Assembly: GCA_965229935.1 (NCBI GenBank)
Contig: CBDDKB010000002.1
Span: 322,178 to 386,177 of the forward strand
Direction: 5' to 3'
Length of the DNA stretch: 64,000 bases
Source of the DNA: Alphaproteobacteria bacterium
GTDB taxonomy: Bacteria; Pseudomonadota; Alphaproteobacteria; SPJN01
Position 1 is the stretch's first letter; each line of letters opens with the position of its first letter. The notes under the pieces were generated by a model. It made no database searches. It had not been told where the DNA came from and saw nothing but the letters and a program-made list of their open reading frames with translations. Below are positions 16,028 to 51,308 of the stretch, one piece after another. The position numbers were made by a program, and so were the translations under genes.

Positions 16028-16777
16028 TCAGCGATTGGCCTTTGCCTCTGCGACCAAAATTTCTGTCGCTGACTCAATCTCATCCACAAGCCGCTTCATA
16101 AAGGCCTTGCGTTTTAGGCCCGGTTCGATGGGCGGCAAAACCTCAACCACAATCGTGCCGGTATATTTGGTGAAGCTGCGGCGTCCCCAATAAAGGCCTG
16201 AATTCAGGGCAACGGGTACACAATCAACATCAAGCTTTTTGTATAGCGCTGCGATGCCCGGCTTGTAGTCTGGTGCCTCACCCGGTTCTGCCCGCGTGCC
16301 TTCGGGGAAGATGGCGATGGGCTGGCCCCGATCGATCCTGTCTTTGGCCTGCCGCACCATTTTTTTAAGGGCCGATGCCCCCGAATCGCGATCAACGGCA
16401 ATCATCCCGGTGCGGATGGCAATCCAGCCATAGACCGGAATGGCGGCAAGCTCCTTTTTCAGGACGATGGCAGGGTCTTTGAGCAGCAGGTGCAGGATGA
16501 TCGTATCCCACATGGATTGATGCTTAAGCGCGATCAGTGCAGGCCCGTCAGGCAGATTTTCCCGCCCCCTGATTTCATAGCGAATGCCCGAAACATAGCG
16601 CAGCAGGACCATGACGCCTGCGGCCCAAATTTCCATGGCCCGCACTAATGTGGCGCGCGGGGCAACCATAAATGGCAGGGCCAAAATCGCCGCTGTGGCG
16701 GTCCAAAGCCACATCAGCCCATTGAAGGTGAGGGATCGTAGGATGCGCAGGATCAGCATGATGGCACCGCCATACAA
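16028..16777 (-). CDS. 1-acyl-sn-glycerol-3-phosphate (lysophospholipid) acyltransferase, PlsC family, paralog 1
   Basis: HxxxxD motif KHQSMWD and FPEGTR motif. Confidence 0.8.
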   Translation of the reverse strand: MYGGAIMLILRILRSLTFNGLMWLWTATAAILALPFMVAPRATLVRAMEIWAAGVMVLLRYVSGIRYEIRGRENLPDGPALIALKHQSMWDTIILHLLLKDPAIVLKKELAAIPVYGWIAIRTGMIAVDRDSGASALKKMVRQAKDRIDRGQPIAIFPEGTRAEPGEAPDYKPGIAALYKKLDVDCVPVALNSGLYWGRRSFTKYTGTIVVEVLPPIEPGLKRKAFMKRLVDEIESATEILVAEAKANR

Positions 16778-16918: not shown

Positions 16919-17659
16919 CTATGCAGTCTTCGAAAGGCCCAATGCTTCTTCGGCCTCGGCCCGCAGGATGAGGGAGCGTGTTTCGATCCTGTCTTGCAGC
17001 ACCGCCATAAACTCATCCTTCTCAAGGCCCGGTTCGATAATGGGCAGAATCTCAACCTTGATCGTGCCGGGGTTCTTGATGAAGCTGCGGCGCGCCCAAT
17101 ACATGCCGGAGTTCAGGGCGATAGGCACGCAAGGCACGTTCAAATTGGCATACATTTCCCCGATGCCGATTTTATAGTGCGGCTCGTCATAGGGGTCCTT
17201 GCGGGTGCCTTCAGGAAAGATCGCCAAGGAATAATCATTGTCCAAACGGTCCTGCGCATCATCCAGCATTTTTTGCATGGTCTCGCGCCCCTTGCCGCGT
17301 TTCACCGCGATGGACCCAACGCGCATCACCAGCCAGCCAAAGCCGGGGATAAGTGACAATTCATGCTTTAGGATGATGGCCGGGTGTTTTGTGACAAGGC
17401 ACAACAGCATCGTCTCCCACATGGATTGATGCTTAAAGGCATAGATCGCCGGGCCATCGGGCAGGTTTTCCTGACCCGTCACCTCATACTTGATGCCGAC
17501 CAGAATCTTCAGCCAGAAATAATTTACGTGCCCCCAGATGCGGGCAATCAAAAATATATTTTTTCGCGGGCCAAGCATGACCGGCAATCCAAGAATGATC
17601 AGAACAATCGTGGTTGTCCAAAGTGCGATGTTAAACAGGAATGAGCGTACTGCCTGCAT
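16919..17659 (-). CDS. lysophospholipid acyltransferase, PlsC family, paralog 2
   Basis: KHQSMWE and FPEGTR motifs. Roughly 45 % identical to the downstream paralog over its full length. Confidence 0.8.
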   Translation of the reverse strand: MQAVRSFLFNIALWTTTIVLIILGLPVMLGPRKNIFLIARIWGHVNYFWLKILVGIKYEVTGQENLPDGPAIYAFKHQSMWETMLLCLVTKHPAIILKHELSLIPGFGWLVMRVGSIAVKRGKGRETMQKMLDDAQDRLDNDYSLAIFPEGTRKDPYDEPHYKIGIGEMYANLNVPCVPIALNSGMYWARRSFIKNPGTIKVEILPIIEPGLEKDEFMAVLQDRIETRSLILRAEAEEALGLSKTA

Positions 17660-37600: not shown

Positions 37601-38161
37601 ATGGACGTCGCGTTACCGCGTCTGGAACAATGTCACGCCTTAGTGCTCAATGCCGATTACAAGCCATTGAGCTATTATCCCTTGTCCTTGTGGCCCTGGC
37701 AGGAAGCTGTCAAATCGGTCTTTTTGGACAGGGTGAATGTTCTTGCCGAATATGAAAAGACGGTCGCAAGCCCCAGCTTTGAAATGAGGCTGCCTTCCGT
37801 CATCTCTCTGAAATCTTATGTAAAGCCGGCCCGTGTGCCGGCTTTTACGCGTTTTAACCTGTTTTTGCGCGATCGGTTCCAATGCCAGTATTGCGGCAGC
37901 GGGCAGGATTTAACCTTTGATCATGTCATTCCACGCTCAAAAGGCGGGGTCACAAGCTGGGAAAATATCACAACCGCCTGCGCGCCGTGCAATTTGAAAA
38001 AGGGCGGGCGCATGCCGCAAGAGGCACAGATGATCCCGCGTCAAAAGCCCTATCGTCCGGGCATGATGCAGCTGCATAATAATGGGCGCAAATTCCCGCC
38101 CAACTATCTGCATGAAAGCTGGTACGACTTCCTTTACTGGGATATCGAGCTGGAGAAATAA
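37601..38161 (+). CDS. HNH endonuclease family protein
   Basis: CQYCG...DHVIPRSKGG...WENITTACAPCNLKKG HNH/zinc-finger motif. 5' UTR contains the hairpin GTTAGAGC-N13-GCTCTAAC at 37550-37578. Confidence 0.75.
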   Translation: MDVALPRLEQCHALVLNADYKPLSYYPLSLWPWQEAVKSVFLDRVNVLAEYEKTVASPSFEMRLPSVISLKSYVKPARVPAFTRFNLFLRDRFQCQYCGSGQDLTFDHVIPRSKGGVTSWENITTACAPCNLKKGGRMPQEAQMIPRQKPYRPGMMQLHNNGRKFPPNYLHESWYDFLYWDIELEK

Positions 38162-46446: not shown

Positions 46447-47511
46447 ATGAAAAAGCTATTGGGTATTATTGTCGGTCTTTTGTTGGTCATTGTGGCCATC
46501 GGTGTGGCGATGCGGGAAACGATTGTTGAACGCATGATGCCCAATATCATTGCGCAGAATATGACGCGCGATGTGGTCGGCGATTTGCCTGATGGCTTGC
46601 ATGTATTTGTGTGCGGCGCAGGCTCCCCAATGCCGAACCCGAATGCGGGCGGTCCCTGCCTTGTTGTGATCGCTGGGCAGGATATTTACGTCGTTGATTC
46701 AGGCACGGGCGGGTCCCGCACCATGACATTGGGCGGCGTTAATCCCGGCGCTGTGAAAGGGCTGTTCCTGACGCATTTCCACTCAGACCATATTGATGGT
46801 TTGGGTGAGATGATGTTGCAGCGTTGGGTTGGCGGTTCCCACACTGCGCCCTTGCCTGTTTATGGCCCCGTGGGGGTTGAGGCAATTGTGGCAGGCTTCA
46901 ACATGGCCTACACACAGGACTTTACCTATCGCGTTGCCCATCATGGCGAAGGGGTCGTGCCCCGGTCTGGCGCAGGTGGCAAGCCTATAGCCTTCGGCAT
47001 TCCCCGCGCGGGGGAGGCTGTGCCGGTTCTTGAAGAAGATGACCTAACCGTCATCGCCTTTGCCGTTGATCACAGCCCGGTCAGCCCCGCTGTCGGCTAT
47101 CGTTTTGATTATAAGGGCCGTTCCGTCACCATTTCGGGCGATACCTCAAAATCTGAAAATCTGGAAAAATTTGCCAAGGGCACTGACCTGTTGATGCATG
47201 AAGGTCTGGCCGCCCATATGGTGAAAATCATGGGTGAAACGGCCAAACAGGTTGGTCGCGATAATATCGCGACGATTATGCATGACATTCAGGATTATCA
47301 CGCCACCCCGGTTGAGGCTGCGCAGTCAGCACAAACCGCAGGAGCCAAAATGCTGGGCTTTTATCATATTGTCCCGCCGCTTTTGGTTGCCCCTATGGAG
47401 GGGATTTTCCTGCGCGGCGTGGACGAGGCCTATAGCGGCCCGGTTGTCGTGTCAAAAGACGGCACCTTTTATCATATTCCGGTTGGCACAGATGACGTCT
47501 ATGTCGACTAA
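46447..47511 (+). CDS. membrane-anchored MBL-fold metallo-hydrolase
   Basis: N-terminal TM helix, HFHSDH zinc motif. Confidence 0.7.
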   Translation: MKKLLGIIVGLLLVIVAIGVAMRETIVERMMPNIIAQNMTRDVVGDLPDGLHVFVCGAGSPMPNPNAGGPCLVVIAGQDIYVVDSGTGGSRTMTLGGVNPGAVKGLFLTHFHSDHIDGLGEMMLQRWVGGSHTAPLPVYGPVGVEAIVAGFNMAYTQDFTYRVAHHGEGVVPRSGAGGKPIAFGIPRAGEAVPVLEEDDLTVIAFAVDHSPVSPAVGYRFDYKGRSVTISGDTSKSENLEKFAKGTDLLMHEGLAAHMVKIMGETAKQVGRDNIATIMHDIQDYHATPVEAAQSAQTAGAKMLGFYHIVPPLLVAPMEGIFLRGVDEAYSGPVVVSKDGTFYHIPVGTDDVYVD

Positions 47512-47580
47512 ACCGAATTATTAACTAACGGGGCCGCCTTTGCATCTGTGAAGGTGGCCTCTTTCATAGTGGGAAGGAAC

Positions 47581-49383
47581 ATGTCGATGGGCATCCTTAG
47601 GGAAGTAAAATATCTGCGCGATATGGGTCGCGCTGTGCTGTCGATTTCAAAATTCGACGTCAACAAGGAAGAAACGGTTGCAGACCATTTTGAACAGATT
47701 GTTGATCGGCGCAAAGGCGCGACACTGTTTTTTTACGAGGATGAAACCTATACCTATCAACAGATGGATGATTGGGCCAATCAGTTTGCTCACTATCTGA
47801 CGTCGCAAAATATTGGCAAGGGCGACGTGATTGCCATCAATATGGAAAACCGTCCTGCCTATGTCGCGGCGTGGGTTGGCGCGGCGAAAGTTGGCGCAAC
47901 CTCAGCATTGATCAACACAAATTTGGGTGGCGCGCAGCTTGCCCATTGCCTGAATGTGGCCAAGGCAAAGTTGCTGGTTTTGGGGGGCGAACTTTCAGAC
48001 CAGTTTGAAAGCGCACGCGATGCGCTTGACCCCATGCCGACCGTGTTGGTTGATGGTGATGGGGCGGTAGCGGGCAGCTATCCCAATTTGGCGGATGCGA
48101 TTGCTGATCAGCCGACCAGCCGCCCTGATCGGTCAGGCCGCGCGGGCATGACATTGGGCAATAGTGATCTGTTTTACATCTATACCTCAGGCACCACAGG
48201 GCTGCCTAAGGCTGCGCATTTTTCCCATTTGCGTTTCATGATGACCGCGACAGGCGCAGGCACTGCGTTGAAGCTGGGCCCGCGTGATCGGCAATATATT
48301 TGTCTGCCGCTATATCACACAGCAGGCGGCGTGATGGCGCTTGGTGCTGCGCTGACAATGGGCGCGGCTGCCGTGTTGGTGCCGAAATTTTCTGCCAGCC
48401 GCTTCTTTAAAGATGCGGTGAAATACGACGTTACCAGCTTCCAATATATTGGGGAGCTGTTGCGATACCTTGTAAACAGCCCTGAGGTGCCGGAGGAAAA
48501 GCAACACAAGATCACGCGCTGCATCGGTAATGGCCTGCGTCCTGAGATTTGGGAAACGGTCGAAACCCGCTTTGGCATCAACAAAGTGATTGAGTTTTAC
48601 GGCGCAACTGAAGGCAATGTGGCCCTGATGAACCTTGAAGGCAAACGCGGCACGGTTGGTCGTTTGCCCGGCTATTTGCGCAAGGCAACGGGTGTGACTT
48701 GCATCAAGTATGATGTTGAAAATGACGAAGTGGTGCGCGGCCCCGACGGGCTTTGCATCGAATGCAAACCGGGCGAACCGGGCGAGGCAGTGGGTCGTTT
48801 GCCCACATCATCAGATGCCAAGACCGGACGGTTCGAAGGCTATTCAGATGAATCGGCAACCAAAAAGAAAATCCTGAATGACGTGTTTGAAAAGGGCGAT
48901 GCCTTTTTCCGCACAGGTGACCTGCTGCGCTTTGACAAGGACGGCTATTGGTATTTCGTTGACCGCATCGGTGACACGTTCCGCTGGAAGGGCGAGAATG
49001 TGGCAACATCCGAAGTGGCAGAGGTTATCGCCGTTATGGATCACGTCGAAGAAGTGAATATTTACGGCGTGCAAATTCCCGGCGCTGATGGGCGTGCGGG
49101 CATGGCATCCATCGTTGCCGGTTCCGGCTTTGACATGGCTGCTTTCTATGCACAAACCGAAAAGGATCTGGCAGCCTATGCCCGGCCGTTATTTGTGCGG
49201 ATGCAGCCTGAAATCGAAATCACAGGTACATTCAAACACCGTAAGGTGGAGCTTGTGAAAGATGGCTTTGACCCCGACAATATTGACGAGCCATTGTTCT
49301 TCCGCGACAGCGAAACCAAATCATATGTACCGCTTGATAAGGCGCTTTATGAAAAAATCATAAGTGGTGGTGTGCGCATCTAG
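47581..49383 (+). CDS. long-chain/very-long-chain acyl-CoA synthetase (FATP-like AMP-binding enzyme)
   Basis: AMP-binding motif YTSGTTGLPKA, FRTGDLLRFDKDGYWYFVDRIGDTFRWKGENV. Start at MSMGIL (47581) with GGAAGG SD. Confidence 0.85.
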   Translation: MSMGILREVKYLRDMGRAVLSISKFDVNKEETVADHFEQIVDRRKGATLFFYEDETYTYQQMDDWANQFAHYLTSQNIGKGDVIAINMENRPAYVAAWVGAAKVGATSALINTNLGGAQLAHCLNVAKAKLLVLGGELSDQFESARDALDPMPTVLVDGDGAVAGSYPNLADAIADQPTSRPDRSGRAGMTLGNSDLFYIYTSGTTGLPKAAHFSHLRFMMTATGAGTALKLGPRDRQYICLPLYHTAGGVMALGAALTMGAAAVLVPKFSASRFFKDAVKYDVTSFQYIGELLRYLVNSPEVPEEKQHKITRCIGNGLRPEIWETVETRFGINKVIEFYGATEGNVALMNLEGKRGTVGRLPGYLRKATGVTCIKYDVENDEVVRGPDGLCIECKPGEPGEAVGRLPTSSDAKTGRFEGYSDESATKKKILNDVFEKGDAFFRTGDLLRFDKDGYWYFVDRIGDTFRWKGENVATSEVAEVIAVMDHVEEVNIYGVQIPGADGRAGMASIVAGSGFDMAAFYAQTEKDLAAYARPLFVRMQPEIEITGTFKHRKVELVKDGFDPDNIDEPLFFRDSETKSYVPLDKALYEKIISGGVRI

Positions 49384-49413
49384 CGACGGTCACCATTTCA
49401 CTATTAAGGCAAA

Positions 49414-49446
49414 GAAAAAGCCGCCCTCAAAACTATTGGGGGCGGC
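49414..49446. repeat. 33-bp direct repeat copy 1 (GAAAAAGCCGCCCTCAAAACTATTGGGGGCGGC); hairpin GCCGCCC/GGGCGGC that serves as terminator for the islet ORF (minus strand, TTTTTC tail)
   Basis: Near-identical (31/33) to copy 2 at 50340-50373. Similarity continues imperfectly for about 15 bp beyond it. Confidence 0.6.
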
Positions 49447-49469
49447 AACCGTGTCTCGTTCGTTGTGCT

Positions 49470-50270
49470 CTATTCGTACGGTGGCAGGTTGGCTGCAGCG
49501 CGCTCGATGTTAGCGGGGATGCTTTCATCGCTTTTTATCGCTAACTCGGGACAATGCTTAGTAGTAAATTCATTGATGCAAGTTGTCAGAGTGCTTGCTG
49601 CGGTTCGCGCCCATTTCAACTGATCTTGAATTTCAGCTTGGCTTCGCTGAGCGCCTTTTTGGTGCAGGTAGTGATGCCCAGATATGCTGCGCCGTAAATT
49701 AGATAGTCGCAGCTTTAGTGCCATATAGGAAGCTAGTATATCATCGTTCTGCGGCTCAAGTGAGTAAACGGTTTTCTCTGCAACATCTAGCGTTTCCAAT
49801 ACATTGCCGATTCGAACGGCAATTTCCATTATGCGACTTGCTCGCTCGGCACGGATTGGAATCAATGTGTCTTTGATGTCGTTTTCGATCTGCACTAACT
49901 GATATGCAAGACTTGTTACAAATTGGCTTGAGGCAATAATTGCTTTTTTATTTCTATCCTTTTTGTCGCGAAGTTGATCCTCAAAACGATATTGTTCGTT
50001 AATTGTAAGCGAAAGAAAAATTGCAAAGAAACCTATGATTCCGGCGACGTAGCTTCCATACTCCTCGAAATAGACCTCATATTCAGTCCCTTTGGCCACA
50101 CGCGGCAGTGCAAGTAAGGCTGCGACCACTATCAGTGATATAAAGTAAGTAAGTCTGGATCGCATATTATTCCAGTTGAAACTCGACTTTTTTCCGTTTG
50201 CCAAGGTCAAAGTGGCCATAAATCCAATTATCCCAAAATAAGCGCCAAGTCCGAATAGCAGGAAGTGCAT
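49470..50270 (-). CDS. orphan membrane protein: 3 N-terminal TM helices plus a roughly 170-aa helical C-terminal domain, no recognisable family; encoded on an AT-rich islet
   Basis: 266 aa from ATG 50270 (the ORF track starts at a TTG at 50273). Codon usage rich in AAA/AAT/ATT/TTT, unlike its neighbours. Perfect TTGACA about 60 bp upstream on the minus strand. Confidence 0.5.
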   Translation of the reverse strand: MHFLLFGLGAYFGIIGFMATLTLANGKKSSFNWNNMRSRLTYFISLIVVAALLALPRVAKGTEYEVYFEEYGSYVAGIIGFFAIFLSLTINEQYRFEDQLRDKKDRNKKAIIASSQFVTSLAYQLVQIENDIKDTLIPIRAERASRIMEIAVRIGNVLETLDVAEKTVYSLEPQNDDILASYMALKLRLSNLRRSISGHHYLHQKGAQRSQAEIQDQLKWARTAASTLTTCINEFTTKHCPELAIKSDESIPANIERAAANLPPYE

Positions 50271-50339
50271 CAAATAAGATCTCTATGCAAAAAATAACAA
50301 CTTATGAGAGTGTTAAGCCGACTTGTATGACTGTCAACA

Positions 50340-50373
50340 GAAAAAGCCGCCCTCAAAACGAATTGGGGGCGGC
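50340..50373 (-). terminator. 34-bp direct repeat copy 2; rho-independent terminator of the hydrolase gene (GCCGCCCCC-loop-GGGCGGC followed by TTTTTC on the minus strand)
   Basis: Hairpin plus U-tract read in sequence, 27 bp downstream of the stop at 50400. Also followed on the plus strand by a TTGATTTTGTTT tail, so possibly bidirectional. Confidence 0.6.
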
Positions 50374-50399
50374 TTGATTTTGTTTCGTTGAAGGGGCGC

Positions 50400-51308
50400 T
50401 TATTCAGCGGCGATCAAGAACCCTTCAGGAGCTTCATCTTTTGAGTTTGCCTCGGCATCCCATTTTTCGATGTACTCGCGATTGTCAAAGTCCCAAGGAT
50501 GGAAACCATCTTTGAAGAAGGCTTTAAACTCAGGCCACATTTTGCGGAAAATGCCGGGCTTGCCCCATGCATATTTTACTGTGGACCAATGGGCCTTGAA
50601 GTTGAACAGGTTGCCTGACGCATACATCAAACGGGTGTAGTAGATGAATGTGCGTGCCATGAAGGGGATAGACACCATACGCAGGGCGCGCTTGCGGGCC
50701 TTTTCAAATTCTTTCTCGTCCTCGATGGCAACACGCATCAGGTCAAAGCAAACAGCCTTATGTTCGCTTTCTTCAACCGCGTGCCACAGCCATACGTTAC
50801 GCATAGCAGGATGCGCGCCATCCAAAGCGCCGGGGTTGGACAGAAGACCATTTGCCAAAACGGCGGTCCAATGTTCCAGCGCAACGGTAACGCCAAGCTG
50901 CTGATATTTGTTCAGCACTTTTTGGCCCATGCCAAGATCGCGCCAGACTTCCTGTTCGATCTTTTTGGCGGGCAGGCCATCACGTTCCAGCATTTCGTTA
51001 TAGGCTTCATGTTCGCGGGTATGAATGGCTTCCTGCGTCATGAAGTTTTTGATCTCTTTCTTCAGCTTCGGATCCGTCACGTCCTTAATGAACGGGCGGG
51101 TTGAATCGATGAAGAAAGTTTCCCCTGCCGGGAACAGCAATGACATGGCGTTCAGCAGGTTGGATTTACCCGGGCAGCCATCAAGCCAATCGTAATGCAC
51201 GGTTTCGTCAAAGCCGAAATCGATATTGCGCGGGATAATGTCCTTCGCGGAATGGCTTTGGCTTGAGGTTGCTTCTTCAGGAGCGGTGGTTTGTGTCATC
51301 TCAGACAT
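50400..51308 (-). CDS. predicted metal-dependent hydrolase (PF10118-like)
   Basis: His/Glu-rich helical motifs HTREHEAY, EHWTAVLA, WHAVEESEHKAV. Confidence 0.5.
   Translation of the reverse strand: MSEMTQTTAPEEATSSQSHSAKDIIPRNIDFGFDETVHYDWLDGCPGKSNLLNAMSLLFPAGETFFIDSTRPFIKDVTDPKLKKEIKNFMTQEAIHTREHEAYNEMLERDGLPAKKIEQEVWRDLGMGQKVLNKYQQLGVTVALEHWTAVLANGLLSNPGALDGAHPAMRNVWLWHAVEESEHKAVCFDLMRVAIEDEKEFEKARKRALRMVSIPFMARTFIYYTRLMYASGNLFNFKAHWSTVKYAWGKPGIFRKMWPEFKAFFKDGFHPWDFDNREYIEKWDAEANSKDEAPEGFLIAAE

Follow-up and report, generated by a model that had tools for sequence, protein, structure and literature searches.

The question raised by this locus is how a single AT-rich gene came to lie between two convergent chromosomal genes with a near-identical hairpin on either side of it. 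The locus forms part of a 64,000-nucleotide stretch (i.e. the window, whose numbering is used throughout) of an Alphaproteobacteria bacterium assembly (GCA_965229935.1, contig CBDDKB010000002.1, positions 322,178 to 386,177). In this window an islet separates an acyl-CoA synthetase-like gene on the plus strand from a gene for a predicted metal-dependent hydrolase on the minus strand, and the islet encodes one protein of 266 aa, P0001. Comparison with related loci demonstrated that a segment of ~0.87–0.93 kb (~49447–50338) was inserted into the convergent synthetase/hydrolase junction in this lineage. The most probable explanation of the arrangement as a whole is that a lineage-specific foreign cassette entered at the convergent terminator with duplication of the terminator hairpin, producing a moron-like orphan-gene islet in a chromosomal hotspot.

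Composition of the islet and empty sites in relatives

The base composition of the islet was compared with that of the window. The GC content between the two hairpins was 43.6% as compared to 55.3% for the window, and the lowest 800-bp interval of the entire 64 kb coincided with the islet (0.431), all intervals not overlapping the islet having values of at least 0.49. The original prediction, made by eye, had placed an AT-rich islet within flanks of ~58% GC. A windowed profile run across the window confirmed the dip and made the islet its deepest trough, but the immediately flanking genes had GC contents of only 52.8% and 50.7%. Codon usage was examined against the 55 other window open reading frames (ORFs) of at least 150 codons. 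The GC content at third codon positions (GC3) of the islet ORF was 0.44, outside the range of 0.54–0.69 spanned by all 55 other ORFs, and its codon-usage distance (0.484) was the highest in the window. Isoleucine was encoded by ATA in 33% of cases as compared to 4% in host genes. The proposed atypical codon usage was thus observed, but not the proposed dominance of AAA, AAT, ATT and TTT, the commonest codon being GCA. From this composition we infer that the donor was probably a lower-GC mobile element.

Relatives of the locus were obtained through the 90%-identity protein cluster of the hydrolase, which led to L001 (GCA_006844605.1) and to L002 and L003 (GCA_039768095.1). In these three loci the hydrolase and synthetase genes converge over an 88-bp spacer with no gene between them. 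The spacer contains one bidirectional terminator (AAAAAAGCCGCCCTCA-actgaa-TGAGGACGGCTTTTT) and the empty site a single hairpin (AAAAAAGCCGCCCTCAactgaaTGAGGACGGCTTTTT). A metagenome scan with the hydrolase contributed L029, a further empty-type locus, as its only addition. The window was collinear with these four empty-site relatives for up to 20 kb at ~80–84% nucleotide identity, and only one large break in the alignment was observed, in which positions 49352–50341 of the window are represented by ~60 bp in the relatives. The net difference of ~930 bp matches the 926-bp spacing of the hairpin copies. An islet-free junction with a single terminator, as anticipated for orthologous loci, was therefore found in collinear relatives.

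The left flank core gene encodes the synthetase-like, AMP-binding protein (47548–49383, plus strand; PF00501, E=2e-59), and is orthologous and collinear in L001–L003 and in four further relatives that carry a gene at the junction (L027 and L030–32). The right flank core gene encodes the 302-aa hydrolase (50400–51308, minus strand; PF10118, E=4e-76), whose orthologues in relatives are 88–98% identical. The synthetase stop codon (49381–49383) lies 30 bp before the first hairpin copy, and the hydrolase stop codon occupies 50400–50402, both as given in the original prediction. The distance from the first copy to the synthetase stop corresponds to 28 nt in the relatives, i.e. the ancestral spacing has been kept.

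Three further features of the flanking region were recorded. The mechanically called synthetase ORF starts with GTG at 47548 and has 611 aa; as the orthologues have 596–598 aa, an ATG at 47581, giving 600 aa, is the likely true start. Upstream of the synthetase, a gene for a protein of the metallo-beta-lactamase (MBL) fold (46447–47511, plus strand) has orthologues in the relatives that match PF23023 (Anti-Pycsar Apyc1) and Lactamase_B. This gene looks like a core-genome homologue of a phage cyclic-nucleotide phosphodiesterase, its core-genome status being read from conservation in all collinear relatives. P0012, a homologue sharing 54% identity with the hydrolase, comes from a 394-kb contig assigned to Symbiodinium microadriaticum; a bacterium associated with the dinoflagellate, or contaminating its assembly, is the probable source.

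Duplication of the terminator hairpin

The near-identical element that had been described as bracketing the islet was recovered on both sides of it. The repeat pair has the form AGAAAAAGCCGCCCTCAAAAC(TAT/GAAT)TGGGGGCGGC, each copy consisting of an A-tract and a GC hairpin. Copy 1 (49413–49446, 34 bp) reads AGAAAAAGCCGCCCTCAAAAC-TAT-TGGGGGCGGC and copy 2 (50339–50373) reads AGAAAAAGCCGCCCTCAAAAC-GAAT-TGGGGGCGGC, with 33 of 35 aligned columns identical (94.3% by BLAST) and a spacing of 926 bp given by the repeat finder. The 19-mer AAAAAGCCGCCCTCAAAAC occurs twice in the window as compared to 0.04 expected occurrences, and none of 100 shuffles contained it twice. The pattern AAGCCGCCC-N(3-14)-GGGCGGC matched these two hairpins only, as did a looser hairpin pattern. 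No other gene bracketed by a duplicated hairpin was detected in a repeat scan of the whole window. Elsewhere in the window, two adjacent paralogous PF01553 acyltransferase genes (16028–16759 and 16919–17659, minus strand) are the source of a 108-nt direct repeat of 77% identity.

Similarity between two hairpins would be uninformative about insertion if both belonged to a generic, genome-wide family of repetitive extragenic palindromic (REP) or terminator repeats. In a scan of representative genomes, a collection that does not include the source genome, the same 19-mer was present in 23 unrelated genomes, so such a terminator-like sequence arises easily. Each of these genomes had one copy, however, and none had two, whereas the window has two copies in 64 kb against the 0.04 expected and, in the relatives, the orthologous hairpin is present just once, at the corresponding site. 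On these counts, which for the source genome cover 64 kb, membership of such a repeat family is very unlikely.

The similarity may continue beyond the hairpins. The sequence TGTCTCGTT (~49453–49461) following copy 1 equals TGTTTCGTT (~50380–50388) following copy 2 at 8 of 9 positions (rough p ~0.01), and the duplicated block may thus be ~50 bp long. The weaker similarity that the original prediction had noted past the repeat is therefore a probable, but not a certain, part of the duplicated segment.

The capacity of the two copies to act as terminators was examined by RNA folding and with a terminator scan. On the minus strand, both copies fold as a GC stem followed by UUUUUCU, so each minus-strand transcript should have an end point of its own, copy 2 for the hydrolase gene and copy 1 for the islet gene. 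On the plus strand, the T-tract is kept at copy 2 only, where a terminator with 13 pairs was called. The view of both copies as terminators thus stands for the minus strand but, on the plus strand, for copy 2 alone. Copy 1 (49413–49446), whose minus-strand reading is the hairpin followed by UUUUUCUUU, would end the islet gene; on the plus strand it lies 3' of the synthetase gene without a T-tract. In the junction spacer (49447–49469), AACCG stands in place of the ancestral TTGATT, which is kept at copy 2 and in all relatives, and is followed by TGTCTCGTT, the possible tail of the duplicated segment. Having lost the plus-strand T-tract of copy 1, the synthetase gene is now without a canonical intrinsic terminator, and antisense read-through into the islet gene may occur. 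The terminator at copy 2 (50339–50388) comprises the A-tract, the 13-pair hairpin and a T-rich tail (GATTTTGTTTCGTT). It is predicted to be bidirectional, ending the hydrolase gene and insulating the islet gene from it. Copy 2 has retained the T-rich tail and lies at the ancestral distance from the hydrolase stop codon; it corresponds to the single terminator of the ancestor together with its right flank.

A six-way alignment of the hairpins was used to place the duplication. The left arm (AAAAAGCCGCCCTC) was invariant. The loop AAAAC..ATT and the right arm GGGGGCGGC were common to both window copies, whereas the relatives all carried GAGGACGGC or GGGGACGGC. These shared derived bases, absent from the orthologous hairpins, indicate that the terminator was duplicated inside this lineage. 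Together with the empty one-hairpin sites and the outlier composition, they bear out the proposed history, in which an ancestral synthetase(+)/one bidirectional terminator/hydrolase(-) junction received a foreign cassette and had its terminator duplicated. Within the limits of 64 kb, the refuting conditions set by the original prediction were decided in favour of this history.

The opposite polarity was also considered, namely that the gene and both hairpins were ancestral and that, in the relatives, recombination between the direct repeats removed the gene together with one of the hairpins. Direct repeats of ~34 bp are a plausible substrate for such a deletion, and the relatives compared are all diverged (~80–84% nucleotide identity). 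A long-resident gene should, however, have drifted towards the host, and the GC3 of 0.44 and the ATA usage of the islet ORF are far from it. The window hairpins, 94% alike and with derived bases in common, are nearer to each other than to any orthologous hairpin. Moreover, an ancestral gene should persist in some relative, but no homologue was found anywhere and the occupants of the site in other relatives are unrelated (both described below). Loss of an ancestral gene is therefore very unlikely.

Insertion of the cassette altered the junction as follows. The ancestral junction held one bidirectional intrinsic terminator. The cassette entered immediately beside the hairpin, on its 3' side with respect to the plus strand, and the A-tract and hairpin (34 bp or possibly ~50 bp) are now present twice, the present order being synthetase, hairpin 1, islet gene (reverse), leader, hairpin 2 and hydrolase (reverse). 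The duplication most likely arose either by illegitimate, duplicative joining of the cassette at the hairpin or, equally well, by Campbell-type integration (a single crossover) of a circular intermediate that had a hairpin copy. Any onward spread would be by homologous recombination between relatives in the conserved flanks.

The orphan gene and its putative expression signals

The islet ORF (49470–50270, minus strand, 266 aa, with an alternative TTG start at 50273) was found where the original prediction had placed it. It is free of stops for 270 codons, whereas the longest such run in 5000 shuffles of the same DNA was 226 codons, and the ORF was on this basis treated as a real coding frame. 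It is the only ORF of at least 60 aa in the islet; smaller ORFs were unconvincing, and no second credible ORF (i.e. a partner of the toxin–antitoxin type) was present in the islet.

Homologues of P0001 were sought by several routes. A word-indexed search of 5.8 billion clustered proteins returned the self-hit alone, and an exhaustive phmmer search of 1.84 billion representatives returned the protein itself and one spurious match. The latter, a 1516-aa tandem-repeat protein, was rejected as a homologue because one chance alignment of 30 residues (33% identity), repeated twelve times, accounted for its score. No significant match was obtained in Pfam, NCBIfam, PHROGs or PADLOC, and none below E = 0.5 among PDB sequences. 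Searches of phage and plasmid records (tblastn and blastn) gave chance wrbA matches or none, a scan of viral contigs gave no match, and no paralogue or related DNA was observed elsewhere in the 64-kb window. Across these collections, P0001 is a true orphan.

Hydropathy analysis of P0001 gave transmembrane segments at approximately residues 3–23, 40–60 and 72–91. Loop 1 has charges of +4/0 and loop 2 of +2/-4, and an Arg/Lys-rich stretch follows the third helix. By the positive-inside rule, these charges predict an N-terminus outside and a cytoplasmic C-terminal region of ~175 residues. A single-sequence AlphaFold model had a mean predicted local distance difference test (pLDDT) score of 66, with values of 70–83 at approximately residues 150–240, and placed an up-and-down helical bundle after the three transmembrane helices. 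P0001 is thus predicted to be an inner-membrane protein with a ~175-aa cytoplasmic domain that the model suggests is a four-helix bundle.

The function of P0001 was approached through families and folds. Hidden Markov models of defence proteins from PADLOC-DB v2 gave no family for P0001 at E up to 1. Fold comparison returned only generic four-helix-bundle matches. The sequence RRSISGHH (residues 193–200) fits Rx4-6H, but approximately one chance match is expected in a protein of 266 aa with 16 Arg and 5 His. Identification of P0001 as a HEPN-domain ribonuclease was unsupported, with no HEPN family in Pfam at E up to 1 and none among the top fold matches. None of the family, homology or fold searches gave positive evidence for the suggested abortive-infection, defence, toxin or membrane-stress function, and a role of the islet gene in defence or as a toxin is neither supported nor excluded. 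HK97 gp15 reportedly acts by superinfection exclusion (as attributed to Cumby et al. in 2012). Judged solely from priors, it is a tentative possibility that P0001 is a moron-type envelope protein interfering with incoming phage or mobile DNA, in a manner akin to superinfection exclusion or abortive infection; the rest of the probability is divided between a different accessory membrane function and the absence of any selected function. A narrower proposal is distinctly doubtful, namely that P0001 is the sole component of a membrane-anchored phage-exclusion or abortive-infection effector, with a transmembrane anchor and a bundle that senses or blocks DNA, carried by a chromosomal moron that inserts at intrinsic-terminator hairpins.

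Expression signals were examined in the AT-rich leader of 68 bp (50271–50338, minus strand). As hairpin 2 insulates the islet gene from the hydrolase gene, the islet gene needs an initiation signal of its own, for which TTGACA would be the sole candidate. This perfect -35 lies two bases from copy 2 at 50337–50332, i.e. adjacent to the hairpin as predicted but one base from the position originally assigned to it. At a spacing of 17 nt it is followed by AACACT (50314–50309), a weak -10 matching at 3/6 positions, and the leader also contains a weak Shine-Dalgarno-like AGAGA. At the other end, terminator copy 1 lies 23 bp past the stop codon. The islet gene thus appears to have its own terminator, while its promoter is only half shown; the claim that it carries a promoter of its own holds for the -35 but not for the -10. 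We nevertheless infer that the cassette may be a self-contained unit (partial promoter, ORF and terminator) behaving like a phage moron in the chromosome.

These signals also bear on whether the insert is inert debris of a mobile element, whose ORF is intact through recency and has no expression, selection or function in the host. In alphaproteobacteria, foreign DNA that is AT-rich is often subject to silencing by MucR/Ros-type proteins. Inertness would also agree with the weakness of both the -10 and the Shine-Dalgarno, and purifying selection is undemonstrable for a singleton without a family. Against this, an 801-bp stop-free frame is highly improbable in DNA of 44% GC without recent or continuing constraint (0/5000 shuffles). 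The protein has a coherent design, in which three transmembrane helices obeying the positive-inside rule precede a helical bundle, and the cassette is compact, with a terminator 23 bp past the stop codon and a perfect -35. Inert debris is, on balance, an unlikely account of the islet.

Some observations weigh against acquisition of a functional foreign cassette in this lineage. The nearest available relatives have ~84% nucleotide identity, and both the timing and the direction of the event are read from composition and the shared derived hairpin bases. Hairpin copy counts for the source genome refer to the 64-kb window. A promoter scan gave no qualifying minus-strand site at the islet leader, in line with the weakness of the -10 (3/6) and the Shine-Dalgarno. 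With respect to function, a pLDDT of 66 represents moderate to low confidence for the P0001 model, whose fold matches were generic helical bundles only.

The junction as a hotspot and its known counterparts

Genes capable of moving the islet were sought in the window and in its relatives. Among the 43 window ORFs scanned with Pfam no integrase, transposase or phage gene was found, all being of housekeeping type or without a match. Precomputed domains within ±10 kb of the locus in the relatives were housekeeping only, with no mobility or phage genes. The original prediction of an islet without a recombinase was therefore confirmed over this range. There were no tRNA genes in the window, by which a tRNA-linked integration site was rejected, and neither the islet nor the window contained an Rfam family. 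Apart from the arms of the hairpins, no inverted repeats are present at the ends of the islet, and the flanking duplication is 34–50 bp; with the lack of a transposase, these features led to rejection of an insertion sequence or a miniature inverted-repeat transposable element. As a separate observation, a stand-alone HNH endonuclease gene (186 aa, 37601–38161, plus strand) with a somewhat low GC content of 51.5% lies between housekeeping genes of the window.

Four states of the synthetase/hydrolase junction were observed, with mutually unrelated occupants: empty, occupied by a member of a 193-aa family (L027, L030–32), occupied by another ORF (L028), or occupied by the orphan of the window. 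As relatives carry unrelated genes at this position, the junction is a hotspot of gene-content change. In L027 (2465–3046), L030 (1230–1811), L031 and L032 the occupant encodes a 193-aa multi-pass membrane protein, lies in the synthetase direction upstream of a single hairpin and has a host-like GC content of 52%. Its family, which is alphaproteobacterial, uncharacterised and not covered by a Pfam model, has >1,371 detected members. A family profile gave no match in the window, L001–L003 or L028, and elsewhere the members occur in differing neighbourhoods, accompanied by an Rrf2 regulator in L035 and by a serine recombinase with a LexA-like repressor in L036. From this absence and these other contexts, arrival of the 193-aa gene at the junction is regarded as an independent event. 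L028, whose hydrolase is nearest to that of the window (97.7% amino-acid identity), carries a separate hydrophobic ORF ending 8 nt before the hairpin. At greater distance, both sides of the hydrolase gene are variable: in L033 (4323–5876; hydrolase 64% identical) the synthetase gene is absent, the hydrolase gene converges on an MBL-fold gene, and the upstream side of the hydrolase gene has gained a DinB-family gene.

The occupied sites also bear on whether the islet exemplifies a new class of single-gene element that targets terminator hairpins and is mobilised in trans, the recombinase being encoded at another locus, as integron cassettes are mobilised at attC hairpins. Insertion exactly at a hairpin, a hairpin on both sides and the lack of a local recombinase would all fit such a class. 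However, a single instance is available, and no other hairpin-bracketed gene was found in 64 kb. In L027 and L030–32 the occupant entered upstream of the hairpin, which was not duplicated; the terminator hairpin lacks a core of the GTTRRRY type, and the 19-mer is found once in each of 23 unrelated genomes, as would be expected of a generic terminator-like sequence. A dedicated terminator-targeting class is accordingly highly improbable.

As a foreign cassette at this junction, the islet provides a small, clean case of a single foreign gene gained without visible mobile machinery. Duplication of a terminator at a convergent site leaves each transcription unit with a stop signal of its own, and the same junction has been reused repeatedly in related lineages. 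With P0001, the candidates for phage exclusion at the envelope gain an orphan membrane protein that is well delimited and by itself opens no new question. An orphan-gene islet in an integration hotspot is a known phenomenon, and duplication of the terminator is uncommon but explicable. The locus is not demonstrably a new system, and its designation as the best candidate in the window for an undescribed system overstates the case of a single orphan gene at an integration hotspot of an ordinary kind.

Phage morons (e.g. HK97 gene 15) offer one comparison. One source defines morons, presents HK97 gp15 as a moron product that benefits the host cell and describes moron products as often being small inner-membrane proteins (PMC3594210). 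Like a moron, the islet is one extra gene absent from otherwise collinear relatives, has a GC content unlike that of its neighbours and comes with a terminator of its own and a promoter that is at least partly present. Unlike a moron, it lies in a core region of the chromosome, phage genes being absent from at least ±10 kb and from the window ORFs scanned, is bracketed by a duplicated host terminator and has an incomplete promoter.

A second comparison is with gene-content hotspots. Integration hotspots between fixed core genes mostly lack integrases and spread via recombination in their flanks (PMC2617782), and the 'minimal mobile elements' of Neisseria form a comparable system (PMC3787668). 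The junction resembles these Neisseria elements and the hotspots of E. coli in its conserved flanks, in its differing and unrelated contents, in the lack of mobility genes in the insert and in a presumed spread by homologous recombination in the flanks. It differs in that the relatives compared here are diverged taxa (~80–84% nucleotide identity) rather than strains of one species, and in that neither definition includes duplication of a terminator. Integron cassettes share with the islet a single ORF, a hairpin-forming imperfect palindrome at the boundary and the absence of an internal recombinase. In contrast to these cassettes, the islet has no attC architecture, GTTRRRY being present on neither strand of a hairpin that is a simple, near-perfect GC terminator stem; there is no integron integrase or attI among the window ORFs scanned and no array, and the islet has its own -35. 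REP palindromes and bacterial interspersed mosaic elements (BIMEs) are marked by many dispersed intergenic copies, as compared to two copies in 64 kb here. With the ORFan genes of bacterial accessory genomes, the islet gene shares the lack of a homologue in very large databases, a GC content below that of the host, a short length and a location in a variable region, with no substantive difference, and a taxonomically restricted orphan gene (ORFan) is the category that fits it best.

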